Source: Candidatus Omnitrophota bacterium
GTDB lineage: Bacteria; Omnitrophota; Gorgyraeia; Zapsychrales; Fredricksoniimonadaceae
Assembly (NCBI GenBank): GCA_903836515.1
Contig: CAILQW010000004.1
Location: 5,036-69,035, forward strand
Reading direction: 5' to 3'
DNA: 64,000 nt
The position numbers were made by a program, and so were the translations under genes. The notes under the pieces are model-generated. The model did no database searches and was not told where the DNA came from. It was given only the letters and a program-made list of their open reading frames with translations. This document shows positions 4,346-25,273 of the stretch, one piece after another; positions within the stretch are counted from its first letter, which is position 1, and each line of letters opens with the position of its first letter.

Positions 4346-4348
4346 GGC

Positions 4349-6919: not shown

Positions 6920-6928
6920 AAAGCCTCC

Positions 6929-8191
6929 TTACGCCAGGCCCCGCAACGTTGCCGCGATATCCTTGTCGGTATGGCTAAACGATACAAACTGCGCCTCGAA
7001 TTGGGAGGGCGGCAGGTTGATGCCGGCCTTGAGCATGGTGTGAAAATACGCGGCGTATCGGGTGGTGTCGGATGCCTTGGCCGTGGTGAAATCCGTGACA
7101 GGGCCAGGGGTAAAAAATACGGTAAAAAGAGAGCCGCAGCGGTTGATGGTGATATTGATCTTCCTGCGGGAAAAACGTTCCTTCAAACCCTGGCAAAGGC
7201 GCTCGGTCCGTTGATCGAGGGCCGCGAAATTTTTAGTCTTGAGCACCTTGAGCATGGCCAGCCCCGCGGCCACAGCCACAGGGTTACCGCAAAGAGTTCC
7301 CGCCTGATAGACCGGCCCGGAGGGCGCGATGCAGGCCATGATCTCTTTTTTCCCGCCGTAGGCGGCAATAGGCAAGCCGCCGCCGATGATCTTGCCCAGA
7401 CAGGTCAGGTCCGGCGTGATCTTTTGCAGTGTCTGCACCCCGCCAAAATGAAAACGGAACCCGGTGATGACCTCATCAAAGATAAGGACAATGCCATGCC
7501 TGGCCGTGAGGTCACGGACTTCCTTGAGGAACGCCGCATCCGGCGTCACAACACCCATGTTGGCCGCGACCGGTTCGATGATCACACAGGCGATAGAGGC
7601 GGCATTCTTGATAACAACCTTGCGAAACGTGTCAATGTCATTATAAGGGCACACCATGGTGTCCCGGCTGAGCGACGCGGTTACCCCCGCGCTCCCGGGA
7701 ATACCCTGCGTGGCCGCCCCTGACCCAGCCTTGACGAGCAGGCTGTCGGCATGGCCGTGATAACACCCGTCGAACTTGATGATCTTGTCGCGCCCCGTGA
7801 ACCCGCGGCTTAAGCGGATGGCGCTCATCGCGGCCTCGGTGCCGGAACTGACAAAGCGCAGCCTTTCCATGGATGGGATCGCTTTGGAAATGACCTGCGC
7901 CAGTTCCGATTCGGCCTGTGTTGGCGCGCCAAAACTCGACCCCAAGCCCACCGCCTTGCGCACCGCGGCCACCACTTCAGGTGCCGCATGCCCCAGGATC
8001 AGGGCGCCCCAGCTCATCACGTAATCAATATAAGTGTTCCCATCGGCATCCGTGATCCTGGCCCCAGCCCCTTTTTTAATGAACAACGGGTTCCCGCCCA
8101 CCGCGCCAAACGCGCGGACCGGACTGTTCACACCGCCGGGAAAATAACGGCACGCCTCCCGATAAAGTTTTCTGGAACATTCCAAGGTCAT
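6929..8191 (-). CDS. hemL: glutamate-1-semialdehyde 2,1-aminomutase
   Basis: 420 aa, YFPGGVNSPVRAF, class-III aminotransferase PLP lysine region (DEVITGFR). Confidence 0.9.
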   Translation of the reverse strand: MTLECSRKLYREACRYFPGGVNSPVRAFGAVGGNPLFIKKGAGARITDADGNTYIDYVMSWGALILGHAAPEVVAAVRKAVGLGSSFGAPTQAESELAQVISKAIPSMERLRFVSSGTEAAMSAIRLSRGFTGRDKIIKFDGCYHGHADSLLVKAGSGAATQGIPGSAGVTASLSRDTMVCPYNDIDTFRKVVIKNAASIACVIIEPVAANMGVVTPDAAFLKEVRDLTARHGIVLIFDEVITGFRFHFGGVQTLQKITPDLTCLGKIIGGGLPIAAYGGKKEIMACIAPSGPVYQAGTLCGNPVAVAAGLAMLKVLKTKNFAALDQRTERLCQGLKERFSRRKINITINRCGSLFTVFFTPGPVTDFTTAKASDTTRYAAYFHTMLKAGINLPPSQFEAQFVSFSHTDKDIAATLRGLA

Positions 8192-8658
8192 GCGAGTATC
8201 CCCTTCAGATCACTTTTTGTTTTTTTAAATTCCTTGAGTGTCGTCCTGATCGTGTAATCCTTGATGCCTGTCTTTTGGGCCATGGCCTTGATCGCCGCGG
8301 CCAGTTCTTTCTTGTTACGCGCATGCACCATCGTATAAAGGCTGTAAGGCCACCGGGGATACGTCTGGCGGACATAACAGTGCGTCACCTGGGGAAACGC
8401 GGCCAGAAGCCTGCCCTGAACCTCCAGGTCATTCTCGGGCACGTTCCAGCTGACAAGCGCATTGCTTTTATACCCGGCCTGAAAATGCCCCAGCACCACC
8501 CCGACACGGCGGATAAGGCCTTCTTTCTTATACTGACCGATTTTCACCAAAAGCGCCGCCTCATCCATGCCCAGCTCCTGCGCGATCGCGGCGTAGGGCC
8601 GGGGCACAAGTTTGAGCGGATCGGCGAGCGCATGGATAATCTTTTTGGGTATCTTCAT
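8188..8658 (-). CDS. ahbB: siroheme decarboxylase subunit (AsnC/Lrp-type, NirD/L/G/H-like)
   Basis: 156 aa Lrp/AsnC-like without classical DNA-binding context, paired with paralog next door, inside haem cluster; A/B assignment arbitrary. Confidence 0.65.
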   Translation of the reverse strand: MKIPKKIIHALADPLKLVPRPYAAIAQELGMDEAALLVKIGQYKKEGLIRRVGVVLGHFQAGYKSNALVSWNVPENDLEVQGRLLAAFPQVTHCYVRQTYPRWPYSLYTMVHARNKKELAAAIKAMAQKTGIKDYTIRTTLKEFKKTKSDLKGILA

Positions 8659-8659
8659 A

Positions 8660-9112
8660 TCATTTCAGTTCAAAAACAGCCTGGCTCTTGAAAACACGAC
8701 GGGTTCTTAAATCCAGAACATCCTTGATCCCGGTTTTCCTGCGGATATCCGCCAAAATGGTTTTCAGCCGGCGTTCAGAAGACGCGCTGACCGTAAACCA
8801 GACATTATATTCCCCCTCACGCAAATAATTGTGGCTTACATGCGGATAATCATTGATGCGGCGCACCGTGGCGGTGAGCTTGTTGACGGGGACACGCATG
8901 CCGATCAGGGTCGAGACAATACCAAGTTTTCTCAAGTCGAACATCGCGGCAATATAACGCAGGACACCTTCCCGGCGAAGCTTCTTGAAATACGCCAGCA
9001 TCCGGGCTTCAGAAACCCCCTGGGCCTCAGCCAAGACGGCAAATGGCCGTGAGGCCAACGGGAAATCCGTCTGCAGTGCCTTGAGGAATTTTTTATCTTT
9101 AGCTGTCAGCAT
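8660..9112 (-). CDS. ahbA: siroheme decarboxylase subunit (AsnC/Lrp-type, NirD/L/G/H-like)
   Basis: 150 aa, ...DYPHVSHNYLREGEYNVWFTVSA... typical NirD/AhbA family; paralog of preceding gene. Confidence 0.65.
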   Translation of the reverse strand: MLTAKDKKFLKALQTDFPLASRPFAVLAEAQGVSEARMLAYFKKLRREGVLRYIAAMFDLRKLGIVSTLIGMRVPVNKLTATVRRINDYPHVSHNYLREGEYNVWFTVSASSERRLKTILADIRRKTGIKDVLDLRTRRVFKSQAVFELK

Positions 9113-9136
9113 TTTCTAATCCGTATAGCACACCTA

Positions 9137-9273
9137 GCTTTTACTGGTTTAAGGCTGAAGGCATGCCGCAGATGCGAGTTCAGAAACCAAGCTTTCCATA
9201 ATTCCTTTTAGAAAAAGCTGTTTCTGCTGTCTGAGCAGCCAGGCATGCCGCAAGCCTTAAAAACCAGTAAAAG
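9137..9273. repeat. large imperfect inverted repeat (~33-bp arms, ~70-nt nested-hairpin spacer) between ahbA and ahbD-like genes
   Basis: gcttttactggtttaaggctgaaggcatgccgca ... aggcatgccgcaagccttaaaaaccagtaaaag; spacer holds gcagaaac/gtttctgc stem and direct repeat aggcatgccgca. Confidence 0.55.
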
Positions 9274-9456
9274 ATCACACTCACAATCGAGAAATGCTCC
9301 ATCTCAATAATTAAAAATTTTTCGTCTGCCTTAACGCGCCACCCTTCCGGCTTCCCTCGGGGCTTGCGAGCCCCTCGTTCCAGGCGGAAGGGGACCATCG
9401 CTTGGCGCGGCGAAAACAACAACTGCCAAGCACGCCCAAGAATCAACTTTAAAATC

Positions 9457-10428
9457 CTAGTAAATACACTCCGGGTCGAAATCCATGTAATCCCCGGTCT
9501 GGGCATACGCCCTGGCGCGGCAGCCGCCGCAAGAGGTCTTGTGCTGGCACCCGCCGCAATTACCGTTATAATCCCCCTGGCGCAATTCTTTGAACAAAGG
9601 ATGACTGCCCCACAGCGCGCTGAATTTATGGTCGCGCACATTCCCGACCTTGATGGGGAAATACGGACAGGGATGCACGTCGCCGTTAGGCAGGATGCAG
9701 CAATAACTGACGCCGGCCAGACACCCGCGCTGAAAACGTGTGGGCTGGTTCATGTCCTGCGCCAGCGGCACGAACTGGGGCGCGCACACCGGCTTCAGTT
9801 CGATAGGGACTTCCCGTTGTTTTTGCATGATCTTCTTGAGAAGCGCCTGATACTCCGCCGAAGGGATAACCGCGGCAAGGTCTTTGCCCCGGCCCGTGGG
9901 GACAAGAAAAAAAATGTGATGCGCCTTGGCCCCCAGCGTGACAGCCAGATCGGTGATCTTGGCCACATCTTTATAGTTATACGTCGTTACCGTGGTGTGG
10001 ATCTGAAAATCGAGGCCTTCATCCAGGCAGGCTTTCATCCCGGCCAGACTGCCCTTCCATGCCCCCGCGTACTGGCGGAAATCATCGTGTACCGCTTCAT
10101 CCGTACTGTCAAGGCTGATCCCCGCCCGTGTCAAGCCGGCGTCCTTGAGCCGGCGCGCCACCCCCCGGTCGATCATGATCCCGTTGGTCCCCAGGACCGG
10201 ACGAAGCCCGCGGGCTTTGGCATGCGCAATGAGGTCATACACATCCGCCCGCATCAGCGGTTCGCCGCCGCTGATGATCAGGATCTTGAATCCGGCCAGC
10301 GCGATCTCATCGATCAGGGCCTTGCCTTCCGCCGGGGTCAGCTCATCGGCTTCTTTGGTGCCGGCATCGCGGTAACAATGCAGGCATTTAAGCTGGCACG
10401 CCTTGGTGATATTCCATGAAATGATCAT
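9457..10428 (-). CDS. ahbD: radical SAM/SPASM enzyme, AhbD-like (Fe-coproporphyrin III to haem b)
   Basis: 323 aa, CQLKCLHC radical-SAM cluster motif near N-term, C-terminal Cys-rich SPASM region (CGGCQHKTSCGGC); context in Ahb cluster. Confidence 0.6.
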   Translation of the reverse strand: MIISWNITKACQLKCLHCYRDAGTKEADELTPAEGKALIDEIALAGFKILIISGGEPLMRADVYDLIAHAKARGLRPVLGTNGIMIDRGVARRLKDAGLTRAGISLDSTDEAVHDDFRQYAGAWKGSLAGMKACLDEGLDFQIHTTVTTYNYKDVAKITDLAVTLGAKAHHIFFLVPTGRGKDLAAVIPSAEYQALLKKIMQKQREVPIELKPVCAPQFVPLAQDMNQPTRFQRGCLAGVSYCCILPNGDVHPCPYFPIKVGNVRDHKFSALWGSHPLFKELRQGDYNGNCGGCQHKTSCGGCRARAYAQTGDYMDFDPECIY

Positions 10429-10429
10429 G

Positions 10430-11416
10430 TTACGTCTCCTTTAACCACCGCGCCGCATCACAAGCATGGTAACTGATAATAATACCGGCTCCCGCGCGCC
10501 TGATGGCCGTAAAGATCTCCAGAACTGTTTTCTTTTCATCCATCCAGCCGTTATGGGCCGCGGCCTTGACCATGGCATATTCGCCGCTCACATTGTACGC
10601 GGCCAAGGGGACGCTCACCTTGTCTTTGACCTGACGGATGATATCCAGATACGCCAGCGCCGGCTTGACCATGACAATATCCGCCCCCTCGCAAATATCC
10701 GCCGCCACCTCTTTGAGCGCGACCCCGGCATCGGCGGGATTCAACTGGTACGCGCTGCGGTCGCCGAATTGGGGCGCCGACAACGCCGCGTCGCGGAAGG
10801 GACCGTAAAACGCCGAAGCATATTTCACGCTGTACCCCATGATGGGGATATGCTGAAACCCGTCCTGGTCCAAGGCCGCACGGATGGCCGCGACCTGGCC
10901 GTGCATCATGGCCGACGGTGCCACCATATCAGCCCCGGCGCGGACCTGGGACAGCGCTGTGGCAACCAAAGACAACAAGGTTTGTTTCACATCAATGAAA
11001 TCCGATAGGGAGCCCGTGGCACCGCCGTTCTTGTAGGTTGGCTTCACAATGCCGCAATGGCCATGACTGGTATATTCACACAAACACACATCGGTAATAA
11101 CAAGGAGGCCCTTCACTGCCTTCTTGATAGCCCGCACGGCCTGCTGAACGATCCCCTCCGGCGCATAAGCACCTGTGCCCAACAGATCCTTGGCCGACGG
11201 GATCCCGAAAAGAATGACCGCGGCAACCCCGAGTTGTTGCGCGACAGCGACTTCCTTGACAAGGTTGTCGATCGACAACTGAAAAACACCAGGCATGGAC
11301 GTGACAGTATTCCTGATGCCCCTGCCTTCGACGACAAAATACGGCATGATCAACGCAAACCCTGATTTTCCGGCAGCCAGTTTCTTCACCAGGGAGCGGC
11401 GGGAGGATCGTGCCAT
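10430..11416 (-). CDS. hemB: porphobilinogen synthase (delta-aminolevulinate dehydratase)
   Basis: 328 aa, CLCEYTSHGHCG active-site/metal region, MVKPALAYLDII. Confidence 0.9.
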   Translation of the reverse strand: MARSSRRSLVKKLAAGKSGFALIMPYFVVEGRGIRNTVTSMPGVFQLSIDNLVKEVAVAQQLGVAAVILFGIPSAKDLLGTGAYAPEGIVQQAVRAIKKAVKGLLVITDVCLCEYTSHGHCGIVKPTYKNGGATGSLSDFIDVKQTLLSLVATALSQVRAGADMVAPSAMMHGQVAAIRAALDQDGFQHIPIMGYSVKYASAFYGPFRDAALSAPQFGDRSAYQLNPADAGVALKEVAADICEGADIVMVKPALAYLDIIRQVKDKVSVPLAAYNVSGEYAMVKAAAHNGWMDEKKTVLEIFTAIRRAGAGIIISYHACDAARWLKET

Positions 11417-11417
11417 G

Positions 11418-12599
11418 TCAGACAGCTTTCACCGGAGGTGTTTGCGTTTCAAAAACTTCCTTGTCCGTCAGATAACACGCCGGATCATCCGCCCACACAT
11501 CCCCGGTGGCCGCCCAGGCACGGACCCGTAAATTGCCGTTACAGATATCCAGAAATTTACAACGCGGGCATCGGCCTTTCAGGAAAGGCTGACGGTCCTT
11601 CAGCCTGGCCATGAGCTCGTTGGAAGTGTCCATCCAGATGTCGCCAAACTTCCTCATCCTCACATTGCCGAAAGACACCTTCTGCCAGAATTGATCGGCA
11701 TGCACATGCCCCTCATTATCGATGTTGGAAATGCCCACGCCCGAAGCATTGCCGCCATTGGCGCGCAGCAAATGATAGATCGCCTCCGCCCTGACCGGGT
11801 CCTCGCGTTTGACTTTCAAATACAAATACGCCCCGTCGGCATGATTATCGACGGTCAGCACTTCCTTGCCGATGCCGCGCTTTTTGAGCGAAAGGACCCA
11901 GTCATAGATCTGGTCGATCGCGCGGCGGGTGTCTTCCAGGCCAAGATCGTTTGGTTTGAGGTCCGACCCGCGGCCCGAATAGGCCAAATGATAAAAACAA
12001 ATGCGGTTGACGGCTTCTTTCTCGACAAGATCGAACAAGCGCGGGATATCGCGGTAATTGTGCCCGGTGATGGTGAAACGCAGGCCTACCTTCTGCCCGA
12101 CATCCACAAGATTCCGGACACCGCTTAACGCCGCGTCAAACGCCCCGATCTTGCCGCGGAAACGGTCGTTATTCTCGCCGATACCGTCCAGGCTGACACC
12201 GATGTATTCAAAACCCGTGTCCTTGATCCTGCGCGCCATCCGGGGGGTGATCAACGTGCCGTTGGTCGAGATCACGGTGCGCAGGCCCCGCTCCCGGGCA
12301 TAGGTGTTCAGTTCAAAGAGATCCTCGCGCATCAACGGCTCGCCGCCCGAGAACAAAAGGACCGGCACATTAAAATCCTTCAGGTCACGGATCATGGCCC
12401 TGGCTTCATCTGTCGTCAATTCCCCGGCATAGGCGGTGTCGCGGGAGTCCGCATAGCAATGCACACAATTGAGGTTGCACCGGCGTGAACAATTCCATAC
12501 CGCGATGGGACGTCGCTGGGAAGCATCCTTGGAACGGCGGTAACGCAAATTATCGCCGTAAGAAGTGATATCGTTTAACAGCCCGCTAAAACTGATCAT
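11418..12599 (-). CDS. ahbC: radical SAM/SPASM enzyme, AhbC/NirJ-like (12,18-didecarboxysiroheme deacetylase)
   Basis: 393 aa, CNLNCVHC radical-SAM motif, SPASM C-term (CPRCKFLDIC); context. Confidence 0.65.
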   Translation of the reverse strand: MISFSGLLNDITSYGDNLRYRRSKDASQRRPIAVWNCSRRCNLNCVHCYADSRDTAYAGELTTDEARAMIRDLKDFNVPVLLFSGGEPLMREDLFELNTYARERGLRTVISTNGTLITPRMARRIKDTGFEYIGVSLDGIGENNDRFRGKIGAFDAALSGVRNLVDVGQKVGLRFTITGHNYRDIPRLFDLVEKEAVNRICFYHLAYSGRGSDLKPNDLGLEDTRRAIDQIYDWVLSLKKRGIGKEVLTVDNHADGAYLYLKVKREDPVRAEAIYHLLRANGGNASGVGISNIDNEGHVHADQFWQKVSFGNVRMRKFGDIWMDTSNELMARLKDRQPFLKGRCPRCKFLDICNGNLRVRAWAATGDVWADDPACYLTDKEVFETQTPPVKAV

Positions 12600-14137
12600 G
12601 CCGCGACTCTTTTCTGTTGCCTGTAATAATCCACCAGGGCCTGGGTCACGCCTTCCATGGTGTACTCCCGGCTCTCGACGGAAACAGGAATGCCGGCCTG
12701 GCGCGCGGTGGCCGCACTGACAGGCCCTATCGCGGCAATCACCACATCTTTAGTCATTTTCCGGCGTTCGTCCTTACCAAAAACACCGGCGAAACTCTCA
12801 ACGCATGAAGAACTGGTCAACACCACCGCATCGATGGTGCCGGCTAAAAACATTTTCCTGACGCGGCTATGGTTGGCCATCAACGGTTCGGCCTTGTAAA
12901 GATCCAGCGTGTCGAGCGCCATGCCTGAAGCCTTCAGGGCCTGCTCCAGGACCGGACGGCTTCCCGCGGCATGCACCAGGAGCACACGGGACTTGCGGGG
13001 CACTTCCTTGATGATGACCTTGGCGAGCGCCTCCTGCACAAAATCCCGGGGCACCAGGGCCACGGGGATCCCGTTCTTTTTCAGATGGTCTGCCGTTTTC
13101 TGCCCGATGGCCGCGAATTTCTTGCCTTCTAAGACCGACGGACTGATCTTGTAACGGCGCATCATCCCGAGGAACACATCGACCCCGTTGGCACTGGTAA
13201 AAACGAGCCATGGATAGGCGTCAAGTCCCTTGAGCACACTTTTGATCCGGGCCGTATCGCGGGAAGGAACGATCTTGATAAGCGGGACAGCGGCCACTTT
13301 GGCCCCCTGGCGTTCAAGCAGGCATTGGAGCGCACCTGCCTGATGCGCGGGGCGGGTCACCAAAATCCGTTTTCCCTCCAAAGGGCGCTGCGGCTTGAAC
13401 CAGTCAAGTTTCCGGCGCAAGTTAACCACCTGGCCGATCACGATGATGGCCGGGGCTTTCATCCCCGATGCCTTGACCCGGCTGACGATATTGGCCAGCG
13501 TCCCGGTCACCACCATCTGATCGGGGCGCGTGCCGTTGCTGATCAAGGCCACAGGTGTTCTTGACGCCTGAGGGGTTGTGCCGATCTGCCGGACGATCTT
13601 GTCAAGATTCCCGAACCCCATCAGGATGACCAGCGTTGCATTCTTGTCGAGGAGTTTTTTCCACGGGATAACGGCCTTGCCCTTGTCCGGGGTTTCATGA
13701 CCTGTCACAATATTGACGCGTGAGGCCACATGACGGTACGTGACAGGGATCCCCGCATACGCCGGCACCGCATAGGCGGAACTGACACCCGGGACGATCT
13801 CGAAAGACACTTTCGCCCTGAAGAGCTCCAGCGCCTCTTCCGCGCCGCGGCCAAAAAGGAGCGGGTCGCCGCCTTTCAACCGCACCACCTTCTTCCCCTG
13901 CCTGGCCTTGGCCACCAGAATACGGTTAGTCTCCTGCTGGGCGAGAATATGATTGCCCGCGAATTTTCCGGCAAAAATGATCTCGGCCTTTGCCGGGGCA
14001 AATGACAGAAGCTCGGGGTTGACCAGCTGGTCATACACGATGACATCCGCCGCCTTGAGGCTCTCGACCGCCTTGAGCGTCACAAGGCCCATGTCACCGG
14101 GACCTGCACCGACGAGAAGAACTTTTCCTGGTTTCAT
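12596..14137 (-). CDS. cobA-hemD: bifunctional uroporphyrinogen-III C-methyltransferase / uroporphyrinogen-III synthase
   Basis: Likely start MKPGKVLLVGAGPGD (AGGTGA RBS); N-terminal SUMT domain then HemD domain; track ORF N-extension rejected. Confidence 0.85.
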   Translation of the reverse strand: MKPGKVLLVGAGPGDMGLVTLKAVESLKAADVIVYDQLVNPELLSFAPAKAEIIFAGKFAGNHILAQQETNRILVAKARQGKKVVRLKGGDPLLFGRGAEEALELFRAKVSFEIVPGVSSAYAVPAYAGIPVTYRHVASRVNIVTGHETPDKGKAVIPWKKLLDKNATLVILMGFGNLDKIVRQIGTTPQASRTPVALISNGTRPDQMVVTGTLANIVSRVKASGMKAPAIIVIGQVVNLRRKLDWFKPQRPLEGKRILVTRPAHQAGALQCLLERQGAKVAAVPLIKIVPSRDTARIKSVLKGLDAYPWLVFTSANGVDVFLGMMRRYKISPSVLEGKKFAAIGQKTADHLKKNGIPVALVPRDFVQEALAKVIIKEVPRKSRVLLVHAAGSRPVLEQALKASGMALDTLDLYKAEPLMANHSRVRKMFLAGTIDAVVLTSSSCVESFAGVFGKDERRKMTKDVVIAAIGPVSAATARQAGIPVSVESREYTMEGVTQALVDYYRQQKRVAA

Positions 14138-14166
14138 ATACGCATCACCTAATATATTTTTTATGA

Positions 14167-14187
14167 GGGCGGGTCTTAGACCCGCCC
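14167..14187. repeat. REP-like GC-rich palindrome, copy 1 (GGGCGGGTCTTAGACCCGCCC)
   Basis: Perfect palindrome in cobA/hemD-hemC intergenic, followed by CTAC. Confidence 0.6.
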
Positions 14188-14240
14188 CTACACACCATGG
14201 GATACATCCATCACGGCATACCTGGGCCACTCACATGTAC

Positions 14241-14261
14241 GGGCGGATCTTAGACCCGCCC
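14241..14261. repeat. REP-like GC-rich palindrome, copy 2 (GGGCGGATCTTAGACCCGCCC)
   Basis: One-mismatch variant 54 nt from copy 1, abutting hemC stop. Confidence 0.6.
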
Positions 14262-14267
14262 CTGCCT

Positions 14268-15197: not shown

Positions 15198-15248
15198 AAA
15201 TGTATCCACCTGGAACAACGACCCGTCGATCTTGGCCGATGTTTGTTT

Positions 15249-15269
15249 GGGCGGGTTTGAAACCCGCCC
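15249..15269. repeat. REP-like GC-rich palindrome, copy 3 (GGGCGGGTTTGAAACCCGCCC)
   Basis: Same arms, different loop, immediately after sirC stop codon. Confidence 0.6.
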
Positions 15270-15911: not shown

Positions 15912-15932
15912 GGGCATCCCCGAATTGTGAAA

Positions 15933-15956
15933 ATCCCCGGCCGTAAGGCCGGGGAT
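15933..15956 (-). terminator. intrinsic terminator after the beta-barrel OMP gene
   Basis: atccccggcc-gtaa-ggccggggat perfect 10-bp GC stem with tetraloop, followed on minus strand by UUUCACAAUU. Confidence 0.5.
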
Positions 15957-15994
15957 TGAAATCACCCGACACCCGGACACTCAAGGCGCCTCTG

Positions 15995-18043
15995 TTACCA
16001 CTTCACATCCACATCGAGCCAGACAACATGCGCGCTGTAATTTCCCGTCGACACGCCTTCAAAATTACGGAAAGCATAATAAGCATAATGCGGTTCGATG
16101 GTCAGATTCTTTTTAGGGACCCACTTGATGCCATTGTCAATGTCATACCATTCCTCATCCACCCCCAGGAGCATGGGCCCCATGGCCGACAAGGTTGTCG
16201 TGATGCTTTTTCCGTCAACATTGGTCGGGTTCTTGGCCCTGGAATATTCCAGGTTGTTGAAGAAAATGAAATTCTCCGTTGGCGCATAACTGGTACTCAA
16301 CGCCCAGGTATACACGTTGGCGGTATACGCCGGCGGCGCTGTCACCAACTGGGATCCGATCCCGCCCGTCTTGGACAACTGCAGGGCATATGACAGGTTG
16401 AACATCAGCTGATCCGTTGGGGTCAGCGTCACCCCGTAAACAAAATCACGCTCGCTGCCAGGCATCTTGACAGAATCATAGTCAAGCTGCTGGAGATGAT
16501 ACGTATTCATGGCGGCCTTGACCTTGAAGGAATTCTCCAGCCACTTAAACGGCCTCCAGGCCAGGCGTGTGGAAAGATCGTCGGACGTCGTATTTAACTT
16601 GTTGATATAAATGGCGCTGTCGCCGGTGACCTGATCGTTCTTGTCTTTCTTTTCACTGTGTTTTAACTCGGTGGTCACCGTCACTTTATTAACGGGCGTA
16701 ATGCGCATGCCGAGGGTCGCCGCACTCGCGGGCACACGGTTAACATTTTCCGCATACTCGGTGGGTAACAGCAGGGATTTCCAGTTGCGTTCCTGGCTCA
16801 GATCAAGGTCCGCGTAAAGACTGGTGCGGGGCACCCCGGCATACCTTAATGAAAAACTTTCCCCGGAGCTGGTCACTTTATTTTCATTCGCCTGGTAGGC
16901 ATCAGCGGTAGCCACCTGGGAAATATTCAGGGAATAGACATCGCTGGTGCCATAACTGCTCTTTAGCTCACCTTTAAACCTGGAAATAAACGTCAGCTTG
17001 TCCGTTAAATTGGACAGCATCATCCCGGTCAACGTATGCGTATTCTGGATGTTCTGCGCCACGCCGTTCCTGAATGTCCCGCCCGTCACAAAGCCTGCCG
17101 GCGTAAAATTCCCGGCGCTGGTATAATCCCTGGCGGCATACAGCATGGAATTGCGCAAATGCCCGAAATGATACCCGAAAGAAATATAACTCTTATCATT
17201 TAACGTCCAGCGCTCCGCCCGCAAAGTAGAGGACAACTCTTTGGTCTGGGGTGTCTCTGTCCTGCGGATGATCTCATTCTCCAGGGCCGCGCCAGTACTG
17301 CCATATATCTGTTCCTGACGCGTGTTGTTGGCTTTAAAGAACACATACTTCTCTTCGCCTTTGACCTTAAAACCGTACACATCCGCCTTGCCTTTAACGG
17401 TCACGGTATCTGTGGTCTCATCGTTACGGACAAAGACCGGGGCGATCTTCTTGCGATTCACCGTGGTGTTACCGCTAAAAGCATAATCTTTAACATAACC
17501 CCATGTCGTGCTGTCTTTGGTGCCGTTCTTGGTATCGCGCTCATACGCCAAACTGAGGTCGGCATTATCCGCAGAACCTTTCCCGACTTCAAACGCAAAA
17601 TGACCGAGGTCCATCTGCAGATCCTGGTTCAATGTGTGCAGGTTCATCCCTGCGGAAGGGAACGGATAATACCCGCCCCTGTTTTCATAATACTTGCGGA
17701 AAGAATCGTAATGGACTTTCACATACCCGACATTGTCCTTGGTGATGAGCATGCACCCGGCATAATCAGCATCACCGACCATGCCATTGCCGTCAAAAGA
17801 AACTGTAACATCCTTCCCGGGCTTGGCATCGAGCATCAATTCCCTGATACCTGACTGGGCACCGTCTTTGGTCCAGTTCATGGCCCGGAATTTCGACAGG
17901 TCGCCTTTAACAAAAGCAGTCTGCACGGGTGTCAATGCCAAAAGAACAGTGCTTTCCTGGGCATGCACAGGCAGGCACCACCCCGCCAGGACCACGCCTG
18001 CCACCACATACCTGCTTAACTTGACAAAAAAGTGATATTGCAT
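15995..18043 (-). CDS. large outer-membrane beta-barrel protein (putative porin of a porin-cytochrome conduit; MtrB/PioB/OmbB-like by size and context)
   Basis: ~683 aa, signal peptide MQYHFFVKLSRYVVAGVVLAGWCLPVHAQE, alternating amphipathic strands, C-terminal ...VWLDVDVKW aromatic terminus; start 15 nt after stop of octahaem gene with GGGGGA RBS. Confidence 0.55.
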   Translation of the reverse strand: MQYHFFVKLSRYVVAGVVLAGWCLPVHAQESTVLLALTPVQTAFVKGDLSKFRAMNWTKDGAQSGIRELMLDAKPGKDVTVSFDGNGMVGDADYAGCMLITKDNVGYVKVHYDSFRKYYENRGGYYPFPSAGMNLHTLNQDLQMDLGHFAFEVGKGSADNADLSLAYERDTKNGTKDSTTWGYVKDYAFSGNTTVNRKKIAPVFVRNDETTDTVTVKGKADVYGFKVKGEEKYVFFKANNTRQEQIYGSTGAALENEIIRRTETPQTKELSSTLRAERWTLNDKSYISFGYHFGHLRNSMLYAARDYTSAGNFTPAGFVTGGTFRNGVAQNIQNTHTLTGMMLSNLTDKLTFISRFKGELKSSYGTSDVYSLNISQVATADAYQANENKVTSSGESFSLRYAGVPRTSLYADLDLSQERNWKSLLLPTEYAENVNRVPASAATLGMRITPVNKVTVTTELKHSEKKDKNDQVTGDSAIYINKLNTTSDDLSTRLAWRPFKWLENSFKVKAAMNTYHLQQLDYDSVKMPGSERDFVYGVTLTPTDQLMFNLSYALQLSKTGGIGSQLVTAPPAYTANVYTWALSTSYAPTENFIFFNNLEYSRAKNPTNVDGKSITTTLSAMGPMLLGVDEEWYDIDNGIKWVPKKNLTIEPHYAYYAFRNFEGVSTGNYSAHVVWLDVDVKW

Positions 18044-18057
18044 CACCGTCCCCCTTT

Positions 18058-18849
18058 TTAATACGTAAATTTCGACGCAAAATTTGACCCGTGCGGCTTT
18101 GTATGGCAAGTCCAGCAGGCCCCGGAACGCTTCATATTGTTCGTATGATCGTCATCTTCAACCAATGTCGGGAAGTTAGCCTGGGCATGACATTTCAGGC
18201 ACAGATTAAAATCCCGGGCCAAGAGCATTTTGGCGTTGATGGAACCATGCACCTTGTGGCAGGTGGTGCAGCCTTCGCGCATGGCCGGATGCTCATACAC
18301 AAAAGGCCCCTGCTGATCCTTGTGGCACTTGAAACAGACTTCATTGGGGCCTTCCATGGATGTGGCAGACCATGGCTTGGCATCTTCACTGTGCATGTTA
18401 TGGCAATCGGTGCAGCTCATCTTGCCCTCTAACACGGGGTGATGATTGGGAAGACGGAATTCCATCTTTTTTTCCATATGACAGGTGAAACAAATCGTGG
18501 GATCTTTCTTGGGATTGATGATGGCGTTCCCCTTGCCGCCACCATTCTCCGCATGGATGCTGCCCGGTCCATGACAGATCTCGCACCCGTTGGCCTCATC
18601 CGTGCTGCCCTTGCCCGCGATCTTGGCGTGCGGAGAAAGTTTGAACGTCTTTCCCTGATCCTCGTGACAGCTGAGGCAGGTTTCCGTCCCCACATACGTC
18701 GCGCCCTTTTGGGACACGGCCAGGGGCTTCTGCTCCACCAGCGCCTGCGCGGGTGTTATGCCTCCGGCGCAAGGAACCAGACAGAACAGCACAAGGCCTA
18801 AAAACGCAGCTTGGGTAAAACGCAGGAAAAGAAACCTTTTGGCTTTCAT
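18058..18849 (-). CDS. octahaem c-type cytochrome (periplasmic or lipoprotein)
   Basis: 8 CxxCH motifs (CLSCH CEICH CFTCH CTDCH CFKCH CTTCH CLKCH CWTCH); signal peptide MKAKRFLFL...LVPCAGG (possible lipobox); AAGGAGG upstream. Confidence 0.8.
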   Translation of the reverse strand: MKAKRFLFLRFTQAAFLGLVLFCLVPCAGGITPAQALVEQKPLAVSQKGATYVGTETCLSCHEDQGKTFKLSPHAKIAGKGSTDEANGCEICHGPGSIHAENGGGKGNAIINPKKDPTICFTCHMEKKMEFRLPNHHPVLEGKMSCTDCHNMHSEDAKPWSATSMEGPNEVCFKCHKDQQGPFVYEHPAMREGCTTCHKVHGSINAKMLLARDFNLCLKCHAQANFPTLVEDDDHTNNMKRSGACWTCHTKPHGSNFASKFTY

Positions 18850-18866
18850 AAGCCTCCTTCGATGTG

Positions 18867-19175
18867 TTATTTTTTGAAATCTTCGATCTTGCCCACGTGC
18901 GTATAGGTATCTGTCGTCGGTTCGACTTCTTTCACAGCCTCTTTCCCTGCCTGCGCCAGAACTGCCTTGCCGTAAGCGTTCCATTCATGCGCCCCATCGT
19001 CTTTCTTGGGGATCTTGTCCACATGGCAATCGATGCACTTGACACTGGCGCCGGGAAATGCCTCTTTGTACTTCTTCATTTCTTCAACATTGGCCCGTGC
19101 GGGAGCGCTGAAGGTTATCCCCCCTGCCAAAACCGTAAGCAATATGATCGTTACCTTCACATGTTGGGTGACCAT
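18867..19175 (-). CDS. monohaem c-type cytochrome, secreted
   Basis: 102 aa, signal peptide, single CIDCH. Confidence 0.65.
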   Translation of the reverse strand: MVTQHVKVTIILLTVLAGGITFSAPARANVEEMKKYKEAFPGASVKCIDCHVDKIPKKDDGAHEWNAYGKAVLAQAGKEAVKEVEPTTDTYTHVGKIEDFKK

Positions 19176-19205
19176 AGGATTCCTTTTTTATGATGGGTTA
19201 CAGGC

Positions 19206-20774
19206 TCAAATCCCTTTTCCTTTATAGCCTCTCTTAAAGAAAACAAAACCAAGAAAGCACGCCTCAAAAACAAGAAAATAAATGATCCAGGTCAATCCGC
19301 CGGAACCTGAACCGTAACTGTGCATGCCGCGGCCCAGCACAAAATTAACACCGTACCAGGTCATCAGGACCAGCAAAAACCCTAGGATGCCGCTGACAGC
19401 CAGCGCAAAATTATTGAGCTTCCTGCTGTAGCGCAAATGGAGGATGGCCATATAGCCGAGAAACGTGATAAACGCCCAGGTCTCTTTGGGATCCCATCCC
19501 CAGAACCTGCCCCAGGCCTCATTCGCCCACACCCCTCCCAAAATAGTACCGGCCCCAAGCGCAATAAGCCCCGCCTGCAACAGGCGATAGATCGTGTCCG
19601 CCGACAGCTGTTCTTCCTGAAGTGTCTGCCTGCCCCGCACGGAGAGGAACAAATGCCGGTGGGAAACAGCCATGGCAAACGCAAAAAGGCTGTAACTGGA
19701 AATGATCGTGATCACATGGACCGTGAGCCAGTAACTGCTGCGCAAGACCGGCGATACCACATCGAGCGACTGATCCACGGGCAGAAGCCTGGCGTAGAGC
19801 ATGATCAGCGCGCTCACCAAAGCGCCGCTCGACAAAAAGGCTGTACGTTTTTTAATGATCACAAAGACGCCCACACTGATCATCAAGACCAGATCCATGA
19901 ACACCATGGTTTCATACATGTTGGCGACCGGCGGCCGGAGGAGGATCATCCAGCGCAAGAGTATCCCCGCGGCATGAAAGATAAAACCGGCGGCAATCAG
20001 AAGTTTCCCCGCATGCTGGGGCAAGGGCCGCGGCCACAACAAACAAACGAAGCCCAGCAGATAAAAAATCCAGGCATAATAAAAAGGCTGCAGCTGATAA
20101 TAGGCTGTTTCCATCCGGAGCCTCACCTGCATGCCTTTTCTGATGGAACGGTCAGCCTGGAGGATCCATGATTTGACCTCCTGCTCCCGGGCGGGTGCTT
20201 TGAGGGCGTAATCATGCACCAGCTTCCTGAACATGTCGGCATCAGCCCCGGACACTTTATAGGGCGATGCCCAGGCCCCTTCATCCGCAGGAATGACCGT
20301 GATGCTATCGCCGGAACTCAACGATTGCACAGCCGCCATGCGCTGGTAGAGTATTTCAGCCTGCTGTTCCAGGGCCGAGGGGCGCTTGTCCTGTTGACGC
20401 CGCCCATTCGCGCTTTGCACCAACGACATTAATGTATCCCAGCCAGGCTTGAGCTGTTGATAGGAAACATGGCCCCCTTCAGCCGGAAGCCCGATCAATT
20501 TTCTTAAATCCGGATGATCGACGCGGATGAAAGGGATCTTCAGGAACTGCTGGGGCTGATCCAGATTGGCCAGAAATAATGCGGTTGCCGTTTGCCCGTG
20601 CCAACGGGTTTTACCACTGATGAGCTGCAAGGTTTCCTGCGCGAATGCGGAAAACGGCTTGATCCTGCCATGATGCTGGACAGGAATGCCTTCGGCGGTC
20701 TCACAGGCATACCCACAGCCGCACCACAACGCCGCCGCAACACAAGCCAAGATCAAAAAAATAATTTTTTTCAT
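19206..20774 (-). CDS. ccsA: cytochrome c biogenesis protein CcsA (System II haem handling)
   Basis: 522 aa multi-TM, WGRFWGWDPKE tryptophan-rich WWD motif. Confidence 0.85.
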   Translation of the reverse strand: MKKIIFLILACVAAALWCGCGYACETAEGIPVQHHGRIKPFSAFAQETLQLISGKTRWHGQTATALFLANLDQPQQFLKIPFIRVDHPDLRKLIGLPAEGGHVSYQQLKPGWDTLMSLVQSANGRRQQDKRPSALEQQAEILYQRMAAVQSLSSGDSITVIPADEGAWASPYKVSGADADMFRKLVHDYALKAPAREQEVKSWILQADRSIRKGMQVRLRMETAYYQLQPFYYAWIFYLLGFVCLLWPRPLPQHAGKLLIAAGFIFHAAGILLRWMILLRPPVANMYETMVFMDLVLMISVGVFVIIKKRTAFLSSGALVSALIMLYARLLPVDQSLDVVSPVLRSSYWLTVHVITIISSYSLFAFAMAVSHRHLFLSVRGRQTLQEEQLSADTIYRLLQAGLIALGAGTILGGVWANEAWGRFWGWDPKETWAFITFLGYMAILHLRYSRKLNNFALAVSGILGFLLVLMTWYGVNFVLGRGMHSYGSGSGGLTWIIYFLVFEACFLGFVFFKRGYKGKGI

Positions 20775-22570
20775 GCCGCCGCCGTTTTTTGTCGAGGTCC
20801 ATAAAACTGGAATAACGCCCCCAGACAGGCCAGGATCGAACCGATATAAATCAACGGGATGCCTGGATTCCTGGCCACAGTAAAGACAGACGCCTTGCCA
20901 TACTGCGGATCGGTGAAATAGGAAGACTGGAATATCTTGTAGCCCTGATATTCAAGAGGATGGTTCATGGCAATGGTCCCCTCTAATGAAAGCTTGCGCT
21001 TGGCATCCGCAAGCACCACATCGCTTTCGTAACTTGCCGCGTCCTGGGTGCCGGGATAGTCGATCTTGCGGAATTGTTTGAGCGCCAGCGAAAAGGGCAA
21101 CTCCGCTGTCCTTGGCTTCAGTAAGAAGGTAACCTCACCTTTGGCCAGCCGCACAGGCGTGGTCTTATCCTCGAAAACCCAGTAAACCTGCGAACCGCTC
21201 ACCGAAGGCACCATGAGCGCCGCCGCCAGTCCACCCTGCTGGCCGTCTTTCGATTGAGCCATCGCATAACTCACGTGCACATGGGACAATGCCGCCTCAA
21301 CACAAAAATCAACATCCATCCATCCTGCCGGTACACATGCCCCCGTGGTGAGGGGGCCTTCCGCCAGGATCTTGTCCTGCAGCCGGGACTGGTAACGCCA
21401 GGCATTTTCCTGATCATAATAGAAAGCCACCTGCAATCCTTCAGGGACATTATCAAGGTCCGCAGGGGTGCCGGCGTCGAATTTGATCTGAAGATCATGA
21501 ACAGGAGCCGACGTCTGGGGATGCATGGACTCAAATTCGGGAAAGAAAGCAAATTTAACGTTGCGGACGGCCGTACCTTTGGCATCCACAAGATCAAAGA
21601 CCACCGCTGGATTGAACCTTTTGGCATCCGGAAGATTGATGATCTTTTTCCCGGCCACGGCCGCGTAAGGATAATAGGCAAGCCCCTTGATCGTGAAGCC
21701 TGTCCGGCCAAGCGGGATACTGGCGGCAAGCGGCTTATCCCCCCCCACATCGATCACAGCGATCTCGTGGCCCGCCTTGTCAGATACCCGCAGCACCGGC
21801 TTCTGGGCCGCAGCCGCCTTCGCCTGAGGGCGCAATACAAGTGTGACCGGGCCCGTCATCGTCTTGTCAGCGGCAGCATCCTGCGCGTCATGTTCGACCA
21901 GCCATACGGCGGCGTCCTCCGCCAGCTGCTTGCTTTGTATCCTGACACGCACAGCATGATTAAGCGGTGCCTGGTCATTGCCAGGGACAACCTCCCGGCG
22001 CTCGACCGCGTTTTCTATGATATTGATGATATTAAAATCAACCGGCTGTCCGGTATTGTTCTGGAAGGAACGATCATGCCCATTCCCTGCTTTTAATGAA
22101 CAAAAGGGAACGGATGCATCCAGGCGTTCTTTAGTCAGCATGAACTGGAAGCTGCCCTTGCGCAAGGCAAAGGCCGTCTCTTCCTGGTTGGGAAAAGAGA
22201 CCCCCAGCGTATACCCAGGCTGTTTGATCGCATGGAGGGTCTCCCCTTCAAAGAGCGTCATCTGCCCCTCAACGCCGTGTGTCCGTGCCATGAGAGCCCC
22301 GGCCAAAAGGCCCAGGATCCCCACATGCGTGATCAAAAATCCGATCTGGCTTTTTTTAAACGGGAACCTCAGGATCGTGGAACAAAATATATTGATCCAT
22401 AAAAAAGAAACCAGGATATCGAACCAGCGTGTCTGGTAAAAAGCCTTCTGGACAAAGGCTGTCCCCTGGATGGCTTCCACCGACGTGGATACGATCAAAA
22501 GGACGATCAATGCCGCGCTGATCACAACAGTAAAACTGACCGACCCGAGTTTCTTAATGATCGCCATCAT
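20771..22570 (-). CDS. ccsB: cytochrome c biogenesis protein CcsB/ResB
   Basis: 599 aa, N-terminal TM helices + large periplasmic domain + C-terminal TM, directly upstream of ccsA with 4-nt overlap. Confidence 0.8.
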   Translation of the reverse strand: MMAIIKKLGSVSFTVVISAALIVLLIVSTSVEAIQGTAFVQKAFYQTRWFDILVSFLWINIFCSTILRFPFKKSQIGFLITHVGILGLLAGALMARTHGVEGQMTLFEGETLHAIKQPGYTLGVSFPNQEETAFALRKGSFQFMLTKERLDASVPFCSLKAGNGHDRSFQNNTGQPVDFNIINIIENAVERREVVPGNDQAPLNHAVRVRIQSKQLAEDAAVWLVEHDAQDAAADKTMTGPVTLVLRPQAKAAAAQKPVLRVSDKAGHEIAVIDVGGDKPLAASIPLGRTGFTIKGLAYYPYAAVAGKKIINLPDAKRFNPAVVFDLVDAKGTAVRNVKFAFFPEFESMHPQTSAPVHDLQIKFDAGTPADLDNVPEGLQVAFYYDQENAWRYQSRLQDKILAEGPLTTGACVPAGWMDVDFCVEAALSHVHVSYAMAQSKDGQQGGLAAALMVPSVSGSQVYWVFEDKTTPVRLAKGEVTFLLKPRTAELPFSLALKQFRKIDYPGTQDAASYESDVVLADAKRKLSLEGTIAMNHPLEYQGYKIFQSSYFTDPQYGKASVFTVARNPGIPLIYIGSILACLGALFQFYGPRQKTAAA

Positions 22571-23637
22571 GGGGTATATGCCTCTTTGGACACGCCGGCG
22601 TCCTGCATGAGTTCGAAGAGGGCCGCTTTATCAAGAGCCCGGTAAAACTCGTTGATCTTGGCGGCGATGATCTGCTCGGAGGCCGCCACGGCGGTCTGGC
22701 GCTTGATCATGTTATCCTGCACGGTCTGGGAAAGATCATCCACGGAAACAAGCGCCACGCCCTGAACCTCGGCGACCTGGGGATCGATGTTGCGGGGAAC
22801 CGCAATGTCAATGGCCGCGAGTTTCCTGTGCGGACGGGCTGACATCACCCGCTCCATAAGCTCCTTGTCGACCAGATAATGGGGCGCGCCGGTCGAACAT
22901 ATACAGACATCTGCCTGTTCAAGGATCTCCCGGATCCGCCAGAAAGACACAGCCTCCGCCCCGCATGCATGCGCGAGTTCCTCCGCCTTTTCATGCGTCC
23001 GGTTCATGACATAAATCTTTTTAACACATTTGTGTCTCAACTGCTGGATCGCCAGGGAACCCATTTTCCCGGACCCCAGCACCAGGACCGACTTGTCTTC
23101 CAGCGAGCCCAGGATATCCTGCGCCTTGGAAACCGCGGCCCAGGACACCGACGATCCCCCGCCATCGATGAGCGTTTCCCGGCGGACCTTCTTGCCCGTC
23201 TCAATGGCAAAATTGGAAAGGATGTTCAGCGTGCGGTTGAGCATCCGTTTTTCCTGAGAACTGCCAACGGCCTGCTTGAACTGGCCCAGGATCTGTTTCT
23301 CTCCGAGAATCATGGAGTCCAGGCCGGCCACCACACGGAAAAGATGCAGCACAACATCCTTCTCATAATGTATATAGAAAAATTTCTCAAAATCCGCGGC
23401 AGGCGCAAGGCCTTTGAAAGCAAGGAACAATTCGAGCAGCCGGGATACATCGGCTTCCAGAAGATCGGCGTAAATCTCGGTGCGGTTACATGTGGAAATG
23501 ATGATCGAGGCCAGGACAGACGGCTCGCTCATGAACTCGGCCAGCAAACATTGTTTTTCAACCGGCTGAAGAAAAAACTTTTCTCTGATCTCTAAGGGGC
23601 ATGTCTTGTGATTAACGCCGATCAAAACCAGGGGCAT
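22567..23637 (-). CDS. hemA: glutamyl-tRNA reductase
   Basis: LIGVNHKTCPLEIREKF, STCNRTEIY, NAD-binding GSGKMG. Confidence 0.9.
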   Translation of the reverse strand: MPLVLIGVNHKTCPLEIREKFFLQPVEKQCLLAEFMSEPSVLASIIISTCNRTEIYADLLEADVSRLLELFLAFKGLAPAADFEKFFYIHYEKDVVLHLFRVVAGLDSMILGEKQILGQFKQAVGSSQEKRMLNRTLNILSNFAIETGKKVRRETLIDGGGSSVSWAAVSKAQDILGSLEDKSVLVLGSGKMGSLAIQQLRHKCVKKIYVMNRTHEKAEELAHACGAEAVSFWRIREILEQADVCICSTGAPHYLVDKELMERVMSARPHRKLAAIDIAVPRNIDPQVAEVQGVALVSVDDLSQTVQDNMIKRQTAVAASEQIIAAKINEFYRALDKAALFELMQDAGVSKEAYTP

Positions 23638-25250: not shown

Positions 25251-25273
25251 AACATTCTCCTTCTCGATAGGTT

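Follow-up and report, generated by a model that had tools for sequence, protein, structure and literature searches.

Siroheme-dependent haem synthesis, System II cytochrome c maturation and a candidate electron-conduit module arranged in a single gene array in a clade of Omnitrophota

The DNA analysed here, a 64-kb window of contig CAILQW010000004.1 from a Candidatus Omnitrophota bacterium, contains a co-directional array of ~18 genes on the minus strand (~19.5 kb; 5774/6929-25250). Genes predicted to encode haem b synthesis by the siroheme-dependent (Ahb) route stand in this array together with genes for a ResB/CcsA (System II) cytochrome c synthetase and for a candidate electron conduit that the synthetase would serve. 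The array is likely to constitute a supercluster in which Ahb haem synthesis, System II haem attachment and the client conduit are co-regulated. It is a new arrangement of known parts: all components are of known kinds, and the layout of the array is lineage-specific. Current understanding is not overturned by it, and the arrangement is informative without being a new type of system.

All large open reading frames (ORFs) from position 3251 to 31427 of the window lie on the minus strand. In the order of transcription, the array runs from imcH through hemA, resB, ccsA, a monohaem cytochrome gene (cyt1), an octahaem cytochrome gene (cyt8), a porin-like gene and a CysG-N-type gene (sirC) to hemC and onward to hemL (Table 1). 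A preliminary description of this DNA had placed hemA, ccsB (here resB), ccsA, c-type cytochrome genes, a Met8/SirC-like gene, hemC, cobA-hemD, hemB, hemL, an AhbA/AhbB pair and two AhbC-like and AhbD-like radical SAM genes contiguously and in one orientation between positions 6929 and 23637. When the window ORFs were scanned with NCBIfam and Pfam, this gene list, its coordinates, its contiguity and its common minus-strand orientation were borne out by the families recovered. The description omitted the ImcH-type cytochrome upstream and the MtrA/porin-type character of the inserted genes. Its "c-type cytochromes" behind ccsA proved to be a monohaem and an octahaem cytochrome, and the third gene encodes a haem-free, porin-like protein instead.

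Overlaps of 4 nt were found at hemA/resB (22567-22570, as reported earlier under the name ccsB), resB/ccsA (20771-20774), cobA-hemD/ahbC and ahbB/hemL. Most of the remaining intergenic gaps measure 1 to 30 nt (14 to 30 nt from ccsA through sirC), and imcH ends 122 nt upstream of hemA. Twelve independently assembled metagenome contigs (ENA, Logan) carry the exact ResB protein, with the same neighbours in the same order in the six places shown; a chimeric assembly is thereby ruled out. The order also recurs in no fewer than eight other MAGs (metagenome-assembled genomes) whose ResB proteins are 50 to 63% identical, and neither an assembly artefact nor chance accounts for it. A 153-aa ORF overlapping ahbD (9180-9641) was rejected as spurious, having no family match and a low-complexity translation.

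From this layout we infer co-transcription, translational coupling and co-regulation. HemA, HemL, HemB, HemC and HemD would lead to uroporphyrinogen III, and CobA with the CysG-N-type bifunctional dehydrogenase/ferrochelatase would carry it to siroheme. From siroheme, AhbA/B, AhbC and AhbD would proceed by way of didecarboxysiroheme and Fe-coproporphyrin III to haem b, which ResB and CcsA would export and attach to CXXCH motifs. The clients in the conduit would be the ImcH-type inner-membrane oxidoreductase, the monohaem periplasmic cytochrome and the octahaem MtrA homologue sheathed by the porin-like outer-membrane barrel, a chain with 16 haem sites in total that could link the quinone pool to the cell exterior. 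With one or a few long transcripts, and with hemA, resB and ccsA translationally coupled, haem production, haem export and ligation, and the supply of apocytochromes would rise and fall together.

Table 1. Features of the array and of its immediate surroundings, in order of position in the window
Feature	Position	Strand	Basis or remark
Unknown membrane protein, 381 aa	5774-6919	-	9 nt after hemL; 4 hydrophobic segments; cluster membership uncertain
hemL, glutamate-1-semialdehyde 2,1-aminomutase	6929-8191	-	TIGR00713, 592 bits (cut-off 527)
AhbB, siroheme decarboxylase beta	8188-8658	-	NF040707, 167.1 bits (cut-off 125)
AhbA, siroheme decarboxylase alpha	8660-9112	-	NF040708, 137.1 bits (cut-off 140, missed by 3 bits)
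ahbD-ahbA non-coding spacer, 344 nt	9113-9456	-	Strong predicted RNA structure, lineage-specific
AhbD-type (NirJ2) radical SAM/SPASM haem b synthase, 323 aa	9457-10428	-	Best family NirJ2
hemB, porphobilinogen synthase	10430-11416	-	NF006762, 433 bits (cut-off 297)
AhbC-type (NirJ1) radical SAM enzyme, 393 aa	11418-12599	-	Best family NirJ1/AhbC
cobA-hemD fusion	12596-14230	-	SUMT at residues 34-280 (NF004790/TIGR01469); UroS models at 286-538
hemC, hydroxymethylbilane synthase	14268-15218	-	TIGR00212, 328 bits (cut-off 164)
CysG-N-type precorrin-2 dehydrogenase / putative sirohydrochlorin ferrochelatase, 236 aa	15270-15980	-	TIGR01470, 187 bits (cut-off 62)
Porin-like outer-membrane beta-barrel, 682 aa	15995-18043	-	Haem-free; signal peptide; two Cys; C-terminal W
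Periplasmic octahaem cytochrome, MtrA homologue, 263 aa	18058-18849	-	Eight CXXCH
Monohaem c-type cytochrome, 102 aa	18867-19175	-	One CXXCH (CIDCH); N-terminal hydrophobic segment/signal peptide
CcsA/ResC, System II cytochrome c synthetase subunit, 522 aa	19206-20774	-	PF01578, TIGR03144
ResB/Ccs1, System II haem-handling subunit, 599 aa	20771-22570	-	PF05140
hemA, glutamyl-tRNA reductase, short form, 356 aa	22567-23637	-	TIGR01035, 360 bits (cut-off 209)
ImcH-type inner-membrane heptahaem cytochrome (quinol oxidoreductase), 496 aa	23760-25250	-	Pfam Cytochrom_NNT

The early haem enzymes cleared their curated NCBIfam cut-offs comfortably. Both AsnC-like proteins, matched to AhbA and AhbB, carry the Pfam domains NirdL-like_HTH and AsnC_trans_reg2. 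The 393-aa radical SAM protein, which has a CX3CX2C motif at residue 41 and four C-terminal cysteines, scored 560 bits with TIGR04054 (NirJ1) and 522 bits with TIGR04546 (AhbC; cut-off 650 for each), compared with 435 bits for NirJ and 97 bits for PqqE. The 323-aa protein, with its CX3CX2C motif at residue 11 and a Cys-rich SPASM tail, scored 470 bits with TIGR04055 (NirJ2) and 345 bits with TIGR04545 (AhbD; cut-off 500 for each), compared with 186 bits for NirJ and 121 bits for PqqE. For this pair, the best family (NirJ1/AhbC and NirJ2/AhbD, respectively) thus leads NirJ by 90 to 280 bits and PqqE by more than 300 bits. The ranking of families is unambiguous for both proteins, but since the trusted cut-offs were not reached, the assignment of the two enzymes rests on best-hit family together with gene context. 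Homologues ~60% identical to the AhbD-type protein, many of them from Omnitrophota, are labelled "AdoMet-dependent heme synthase" (JGI data) or NirJ2. AhbC is equated with NirJ1 and AhbD with NirJ2 in a recent review (PMC10991733), and the numbering of NirJ1 and NirJ2 is reversed in archaeal papers (PMC3942049). Profile hidden Markov models therefore gave the radical SAM pair and the AsnC-like pair the identities that the preliminary description had proposed. A function of the radical SAM proteins as PqqE/anSME-type maturases was rejected (97 to 121 bits versus 470 to 560 bits for NirJ1/NirJ2).

The CysG-N-type protein is most similar to Salmonella CysG (1PJQ, 130 bits), followed by Bacillus megaterium SirC (67 bits) and Met8p (38 bits). 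In the alignment, it keeps Asp104 of the DAPK loop (here DVPE) and Pro133, residues that mark bifunctional enzymes and that monofunctional SirC does not have. The Asp of the DAPK loop is needed for both activities and is kept in bifunctional enzymes, and SirC has SSFS (Pennington et al., PMC7018833). Given the CysG-like similarity and the retained Asp and Pro, the ferrochelatase step is plausibly covered within the cluster, with chelatase activity of this protein predicted from its residues. The earlier claim of a complete and contiguous siroheme (Ahb) route from glutamate to haem b agrees with the family assignments, and the interpretation of the gene set as an Ahb pathway is well supported by them.

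The same enzymes (HemA, HemL, HemB, HemC, HemD, SUMT, precorrin-2 dehydrogenase, AhbA/B and two NirJ-like radical SAM enzymes) make up the Ahb clusters of Pyrobaculum aerophilum, Methanosarcina barkeri and Desulfovibrio vulgaris. In P. aerophilum, 10 of 11 Ahb-route genes stand in one unbroken cluster (PMC3004389; PMC3942049). The D. vulgaris genes are spread over ~5 loci, with SUMT and HemD sharing the locus tag DVU0734 (PMC3004389), whereas here all steps, including the putative chelatase, are encoded in one array in a bacterium of the PVC group. Unlike the present array, the archaeal clusters contain neither System II genes nor cytochrome/porin genes. With these assignments, siroheme-dependent haem synthesis is placed in Omnitrophota, a candidate phylum that is still largely undescribed and for which metabolic surveys say little about haem.

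ResB is predicted to have transmembrane segments at residues 9-27, 49-67, 76-94 and 571-589 and a periplasmic domain of ~475 aa. Its H82 is invariant across 17 homologues and aligns with the transmembrane histidine of CcsBA 25vk. Residues 34-493 of CcsA align with residues 412-905 of the Helicobacter hepaticus CcsBA cryo-electron microscopy structure 7S9Y (phmmer E = 1.9e-47), an alignment that takes in the periplasmic region ahead of the membrane core (an N-domain of ~250 aa in CcsA). The WWD motif WGRFWGWDPKETW is conserved, and the histidines of HLRY, MHSYG and TVHV align with H858, H897 and the P-His1 region of 7S9Y, respectively. The WWD motif and all four histidines identify ResB/CcsA as a genuine System II synthetase, and not HemX, as far as sequence can tell. 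The pair shares with H. hepaticus CcsBA the topology and transmembrane histidine of ResB as well as the WWD motif, transmembrane histidine and periplasmic histidines of CcsA. It differs in that ResB and CcsA are separate polypeptides, a division also seen in Bacillus and plastids, whereas CcsBA is fused, and in being encoded inside a haem-biosynthesis operon. The coupling of hemA to cytochrome c haem lyase genes put forward in the preliminary description therefore holds as a physical coupling to a genuine System II, and translational coupling is probable.

A second, shortened ResB was seen in two MAGs, ELA167 (L052:1074-2054) and MBPbin6 (L082:10001-10678). Most of the periplasmic domain is missing from these proteins (approximately residues 190-410 or 170-470), and the one in L052 stands between imcH and cyt1-sirC-hemC. 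The shortened form may represent a paralogue, a deletion variant or strain heterogeneity.

The octahaem protein resembles chain A of 6R2Q (MtrA of the Shewanella Mtr complex; E = 1.6e-30). It matched the Pfam family Paired_CXXCH_1 and scored 163.8 bits with the NCBIfam DmsE-family decahaem model, under the cut-off of 192.2. The monohaem gene adjoins the octahaem gene in relatives too. The ImcH-type protein has transmembrane segments at residues 17-35, 52-70 and 100-118, a CX3CH motif (CGTTCH) at residue 132 and six CX2CH motifs. Homologues of ImcH have been defined by a length of ~495 to 519 aa, three N-terminal transmembrane segments, one CX3CH by the transmembrane region, six CX2CH and similarity to NapC/NirT (PMC6295460), and the window protein has all of these properties. 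A survey of ImcH from 2018 reported no mtrAB or mtoAB beside imcH (PMC6295460), whereas imcH adjoins genes for MtrA homologues and porins in many Omnitrophota (including loci L014, L025, L027, L036, L042 and L043). ImcH is thus linked here to an MtrA/porin pair in a way not found by that survey.

The porin-like protein gave no match to Pfam (including PF11854), NCBIfam or PDB sequences, and a search of the PDB with an 18-sequence profile was also empty. AlphaFold2, given an alignment of 10 sequences, produced an all-beta model with ~27 long strands (pLDDT 59.6, pTM 0.52). In Foldseek it matched large outer-membrane barrels only (TonB-dependent transporters, MtrB [6r2q_B, E = 2.9e-5] and LptD; TM-score ~0.28). 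An exhaustive profile search recovered an unnamed family of 674 representative proteins. Among the best 150 matches, an N-terminal CXXCH motif was present in 24 of the 28 longer members. Ten longer members were scanned with Pfam, and the eight that gave a match (P0131, P0145, P0156, P0164, P0169, P0170, P0192 and P0193) showed this motif to belong to a PSCyt1 cytochrome c domain joined to the barrel; in two distant fused members, the barrel gave sub-threshold matches to MtrB_PioB (PF11854). One fused cluster includes proteins of Roseibacillus (Verrucomicrobiota) that are named merely "c-type cytochrome domain-containing protein." The Roseibacillus fused gene (L086) has no adjoining multihaem genes, and the monohaem cytochrome of the window showed no significant similarity to the PSCyt1 domains of the distant barrel homologues (E ≥ 0.065). 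Membership of the window barrel in the MtrB family is formally not established, and the recurrent cytochrome fusion and the adjacent MtrA homologue support a putative role as a cytochrome-sheathing or electron-transfer barrel. The family may possibly be a large unnamed group of cytochrome-partnered outer-membrane porins that occur in split and cytochrome-fused forms.

As in MtrAB, MtoAB-MtoD-CymA and the Geobacter Pcc systems, a periplasmic MtrA-homologous cytochrome adjoins a large outer-membrane barrel, with genes for a small monohaem cytochrome of the periplasm and for a NapC/NirT-related cytochrome of the inner membrane nearby. In contrast to these systems, the periplasmic cytochrome has eight haems and not ten, and no significant sequence match links the barrel to MtrB/PioB. 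A two-component MtrA/porin system without a surface cytochrome presumably resembles the oxidiser-type MtoAB/PioAB. Homologues of ImcH have been associated with metal reducers (PMC6295460), and metal-reduction-type periplasmic cytochromes were reported in 10 of 23 Omnitrophia species (Seymour et al., PMC10066038). Electrons could flow in either direction, towards metal reduction or from Fe(II) oxidation.

Conservation of the array was assessed at 80 loci with ResB homologues from species-representative genomes, compared with all window proteins by tblastn. The ResB homologues came almost entirely from Candidatus Omnitrophota MAGs. The same array was found at six loci with 50 to 63% identical ResB proteins (L005, L006, L009, L011, L012 and L058), and imcH stands beside hemA in four of them (L005, L006, L012 and L058). 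The short contig L007 carries hemA-resB, and L014 (ResB 42% identical) has the order hemA-resB-ccsA-cyt1-cyt8-porin-imcH. Two further loci separate the components: L008 reads hemA-resB-ccsA-sirC-hemC-cobA/hemD-ahbC-hemB-ahbD-ahbA-ahbB-hemL without the cytochrome/porin insert, and L010 carries the resB-ccsA-cyt1-cyt8-porin cassette alone. In distant Omnitrophota (ResB < 40% identical), hemA does not stand beside resB. An octahaem gene lies within 9 kb of resB-ccsA in nine of these distant loci (L019, L025, L027, L029, L036, L042, L043, L044 and L063), accompanied by the porin in seven of the nine and by imcH in five. In a neighbour-joining tree of ResB, all hemA-linked sequences form one clade, next to conduit-linked clades. 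An overlap of the hemA stop codon with the resB start codon (ATGA or TGATG/TAATG) occurs in the window and in seven relatives despite ResB identities of 50 to 63%.

Within Omnitrophota, the array is a derived trait conserved in one clade, and this clade has magnetotactic members: L009 (Cal1bin1) and L073/L082 (MBPbin6) come from published magnetotactic Omnitrophica MAGs (PMC5955933). No magnetosome genes were seen by Pfam in the window. In this clade, haem synthesis, cytochrome c maturation and an outer-membrane conduit are inherited as one unit, and the ~18 genes form a compact, clonable module for the anaerobic building of multihaem conduits. Most simply, a cassette combining maturation and conduit genes would have become nested behind hemA in a single lineage. 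The resB-ccsA(-cytochrome-porin) cassette would have moved from beside a porin/ImcH module to a position behind hemA in a hemA-sirC-hemC-hemD haem operon, and the point of nesting would be the slot held in other bacteria by hemX, a gene for a CcsA-family regulator. The preliminary description had read the hemA-ccsB junction as a matching of haem supply to cytochrome output in general. In related genomes resB-ccsA instead travels with the MtrA/porin conduit, which ties haem supply to a specific extracellular-electron-transfer apparatus.

The array could alternatively be a historical mosaic, in which a mobile resB-ccsA-cytochrome-porin cassette sits in a haem operon as separately transcribed units and adjacency carries no regulatory logic. 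Such an account fits the isolated cassette of L010, the L008 haem array with no cytochrome/porin insert, and the distant relatives that keep resB-ccsA with the conduit and apart from hem genes. It also fits a slight dip in G+C content (0.51 to 0.52 over 16 to 20 kb, against 0.57 on both flanks) and sizeable spacers at ahbD-ahbA and hemC-cobA. The mosaic is nevertheless unlikely, since hemA-resB and resB-ccsA keep their overlapping junctions across MAGs, the gaps from ccsA to sirC are just 14 to 30 nt, predicted terminators are not above chance, and the full array is kept in at least seven species-level MAGs.

The ahbD-ahbA spacer has a predicted minimum free energy of -127 kcal/mol, compared with -108 ± 5.6 kcal/mol for shuffled sequences (z = -3.4), and holds a GC-rich nested hairpin at ~9340-9395. 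It is unique in the window, and the corresponding gap in L008 is only ~7 nt. No Rfam family reached its gathering threshold anywhere in the window, and the spacer had no Rfam match even at E ≤ 1. The spacer may serve in regulation or processing, or it may mark an internal boundary.

Several observations weigh against co-regulation of a complete Ahb route, synthetase and conduit. AhbC, AhbD and AhbA fall below their NCBIfam equivalog cut-offs. The barrel model is of low to moderate confidence, its structural matches do not tell MtrB apart from either TonB-dependent transporters or LptD, and the window protein has no MtrB_PioB Pfam match. Unlike in MtrAB and Pcc, an extracellular MtrC/OmcB-type cytochrome was not found in the window, where only proteins with 1, 7 and 8 haems occur. 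Among the window ORFs scanned, Pfam gave no match for a thiol-reduction partner of the ResA/CcsX or CcdA/DsbD type, which may be encoded elsewhere. The remaining genome could also encode a classical branch of haem synthesis, a Ccm system or another ResBC pair. A promoter and terminator scan of 5600-25500 gave 8 promoters (13.5 in shuffled sequence) and 27 terminators (22.5 in shuffled sequence), judged no better than chance, and operon boundaries are consequently undefined. Internal promoters or terminators could be housed in the 344-nt spacer and in the ~120- to 130-nt gaps at imcH-hemA and hemC-cobA.

The position of ccsA behind hemA has a widespread precedent. In a survey by Choby et al. 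(PMC5801465), hemX (PF01578) adjoined the glutamyl-tRNA reductase gene in 106 of 113 hemX-carrying genomes. The hemX-hemA pairs span phyla and all three haem pathways, and their neighbours are often hemC, hemD, hemB, hemL and cysG (PMC5801465). In the hemAX(CDBL) operons of Bacillus subtilis and Staphylococcus aureus and their homologues in Chlorobium, Aquifex, Desulfovibrio and Geobacter, as in the window, a PF01578 gene stands behind hemA and sirC/cysG, hemC, hemD, hemB and hemL come after it (PMC5801465). Given this precedent, the earlier claim that coupling of hemA to haem lyase genes is an unusual arrangement is only partly right: a CcsA-family gene beside hemA is common, and a true CcsA with a ResB partner in that place is new.

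ResB/CcsA behind hemA might accordingly serve chiefly to control the abundance of glutamyl-tRNA reductase (GluTR) post-translationally, in the manner of HemX, and not, or not only, as a cytochrome c synthetase. Besides the shared Pfam family and the occurrence of hemX beside hemA in siroheme-pathway organisms, the gene order of L008 speaks for this, with hemA-resB-ccsA-sirC mapping onto the template DVU1461-DVU1462-DVU1463 of D. vulgaris, where hemA (DVU1461) and the precorrin-2 dehydrogenase gene (DVU1463) are two genes apart (PMC3004389). The conserved hemA-resB stop/start overlap is compatible with it as well. So is the form of HemA, which covers positions 2-343 of 416 in TIGR01035, matches the Pfam domains GlutR_N and Shikimate_DH without a GlutR_dimer match, and thus has no C-terminal dimerisation domain; it is short (348 to 356 aa) across the clade (L005-L014, L058 and L082). 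HemX proteins, however, are ~270 aa long with 8 transmembrane segments and have no ResB partner, and that of S. aureus works without c-type cytochromes, whereas here the slot is filled by a 599-aa ResB and a 522-aa CcsA, a pair in which the WWD motif and every haem-ligand histidine are present. CcsA retains all haem-handling hallmarks over a 460-residue alignment to CcsBA, and orthologous resB-ccsA pairs in other Omnitrophota adjoin multihaem cytochrome/porin genes, not hemA. No similarity was detected between CcsA and Escherichia coli YpjD, a small PF01578 protein that we take, on an assumed family relationship, to stand in for the HemX-like subfamily. A mainly regulatory role is accordingly improbable, slightly more so than the mosaic.

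A genuine synthetase in the HemX slot, coupled to a GluTR without a dimerisation domain, may also sense haem flux and control GluTR, a speculative proposal to which we give a small chance. If it were true, HemX would be a degenerate CcsA left with the feedback role alone, and the array would offer a tractable system for the unsolved mechanism of HemX. The array is in any case a natural intermediate for asking how HemX regulators relate to true CcsA proteins.

Searches for other haem pathways in the window were negative. From the window ORFs that were scanned, Pfam recovered no uroporphyrinogen decarboxylase (URO-D), ferrochelatase, HemN or protoporphyrinogen oxidase and no nir family, and HemF, HemG and ChdC were likewise not seen in the window by Pfam. 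A tblastn search with E. coli HemE, HemH and HemN gave no match either to the window or to related Omnitrophota loci totalling 1.25 Mb. The reported absence of hemE, hemN, hemY and hemH consequently holds for the window by Pfam, and for HemE, HemH and HemN the related loci were empty as well. A reading of the AsnC-like pair as NirDL/GH and of the radical SAM enzymes as NirJ, for the haem d1 cofactor of cd1 nitrite reductase rather than for haem b, was rejected as very improbable: AhbB is nearer to Hydrogenobacter thermophilus NirDL (4CH7, E = 1.4e-42) than to Desulfovibrio AhbB (4CZD_B, E = 1.3e-26), but this is uninformative because NirDL and AhbAB catalyse the same reaction (siroheme decarboxylation); the NirJ1 and NirJ2 names of the best NCBIfam matches are legacy labels ("putative heme d1 biosynthesis") for what are now AhbC and AhbD (PMC10991733); there are two distinct radical SAM enzymes, the AhbD-type one ranking true NirJ far below NirJ2 and AhbD; Pfam scans of the window turned up none of nirS, nirF, nirN, nirE and nirC; and the cluster holds all early hem genes along with cytochrome c machinery that requires haem b.

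The protein encoded after hemL (5774-6919) had no Pfam match and only a weak match to the MAB_1171c transporter. Directly downstream of the array, a complex I operon (1032-5664, minus strand) comprises nuoA-B-C-D followed by nuoH-I-J-K. With no nuoE, nuoF or nuoG between nuoD and nuoH, it belongs to the 11-subunit type of complex I without the NADH-oxidising module. Farther upstream on the same strand are a 541-aa protein without family assignment at the window edge (62299-63924) and a Bat-type (aerotolerance) operon (34313-41395) encoding a BatD-like protein, a TPR protein, two VWA/BatA proteins, DUF4381 and DUF58 proteins and a MoxR AAA ATPase. The genes immediately upstream of imcH (25274-30498, minus strand) encode an NmrA/DUF2867 protein, a 648-aa electron transfer flavoprotein (ETF) polypeptide and an ETF-quinone oxidoreductase. 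Two ETF-domain matches and an ETF_alpha FAD-binding domain in the 648-aa polypeptide make a fused ETF beta-alpha possible. The set is conserved in L005, L006, L012 and L058, and it may feed electrons into the quinone pool on which ImcH would draw.

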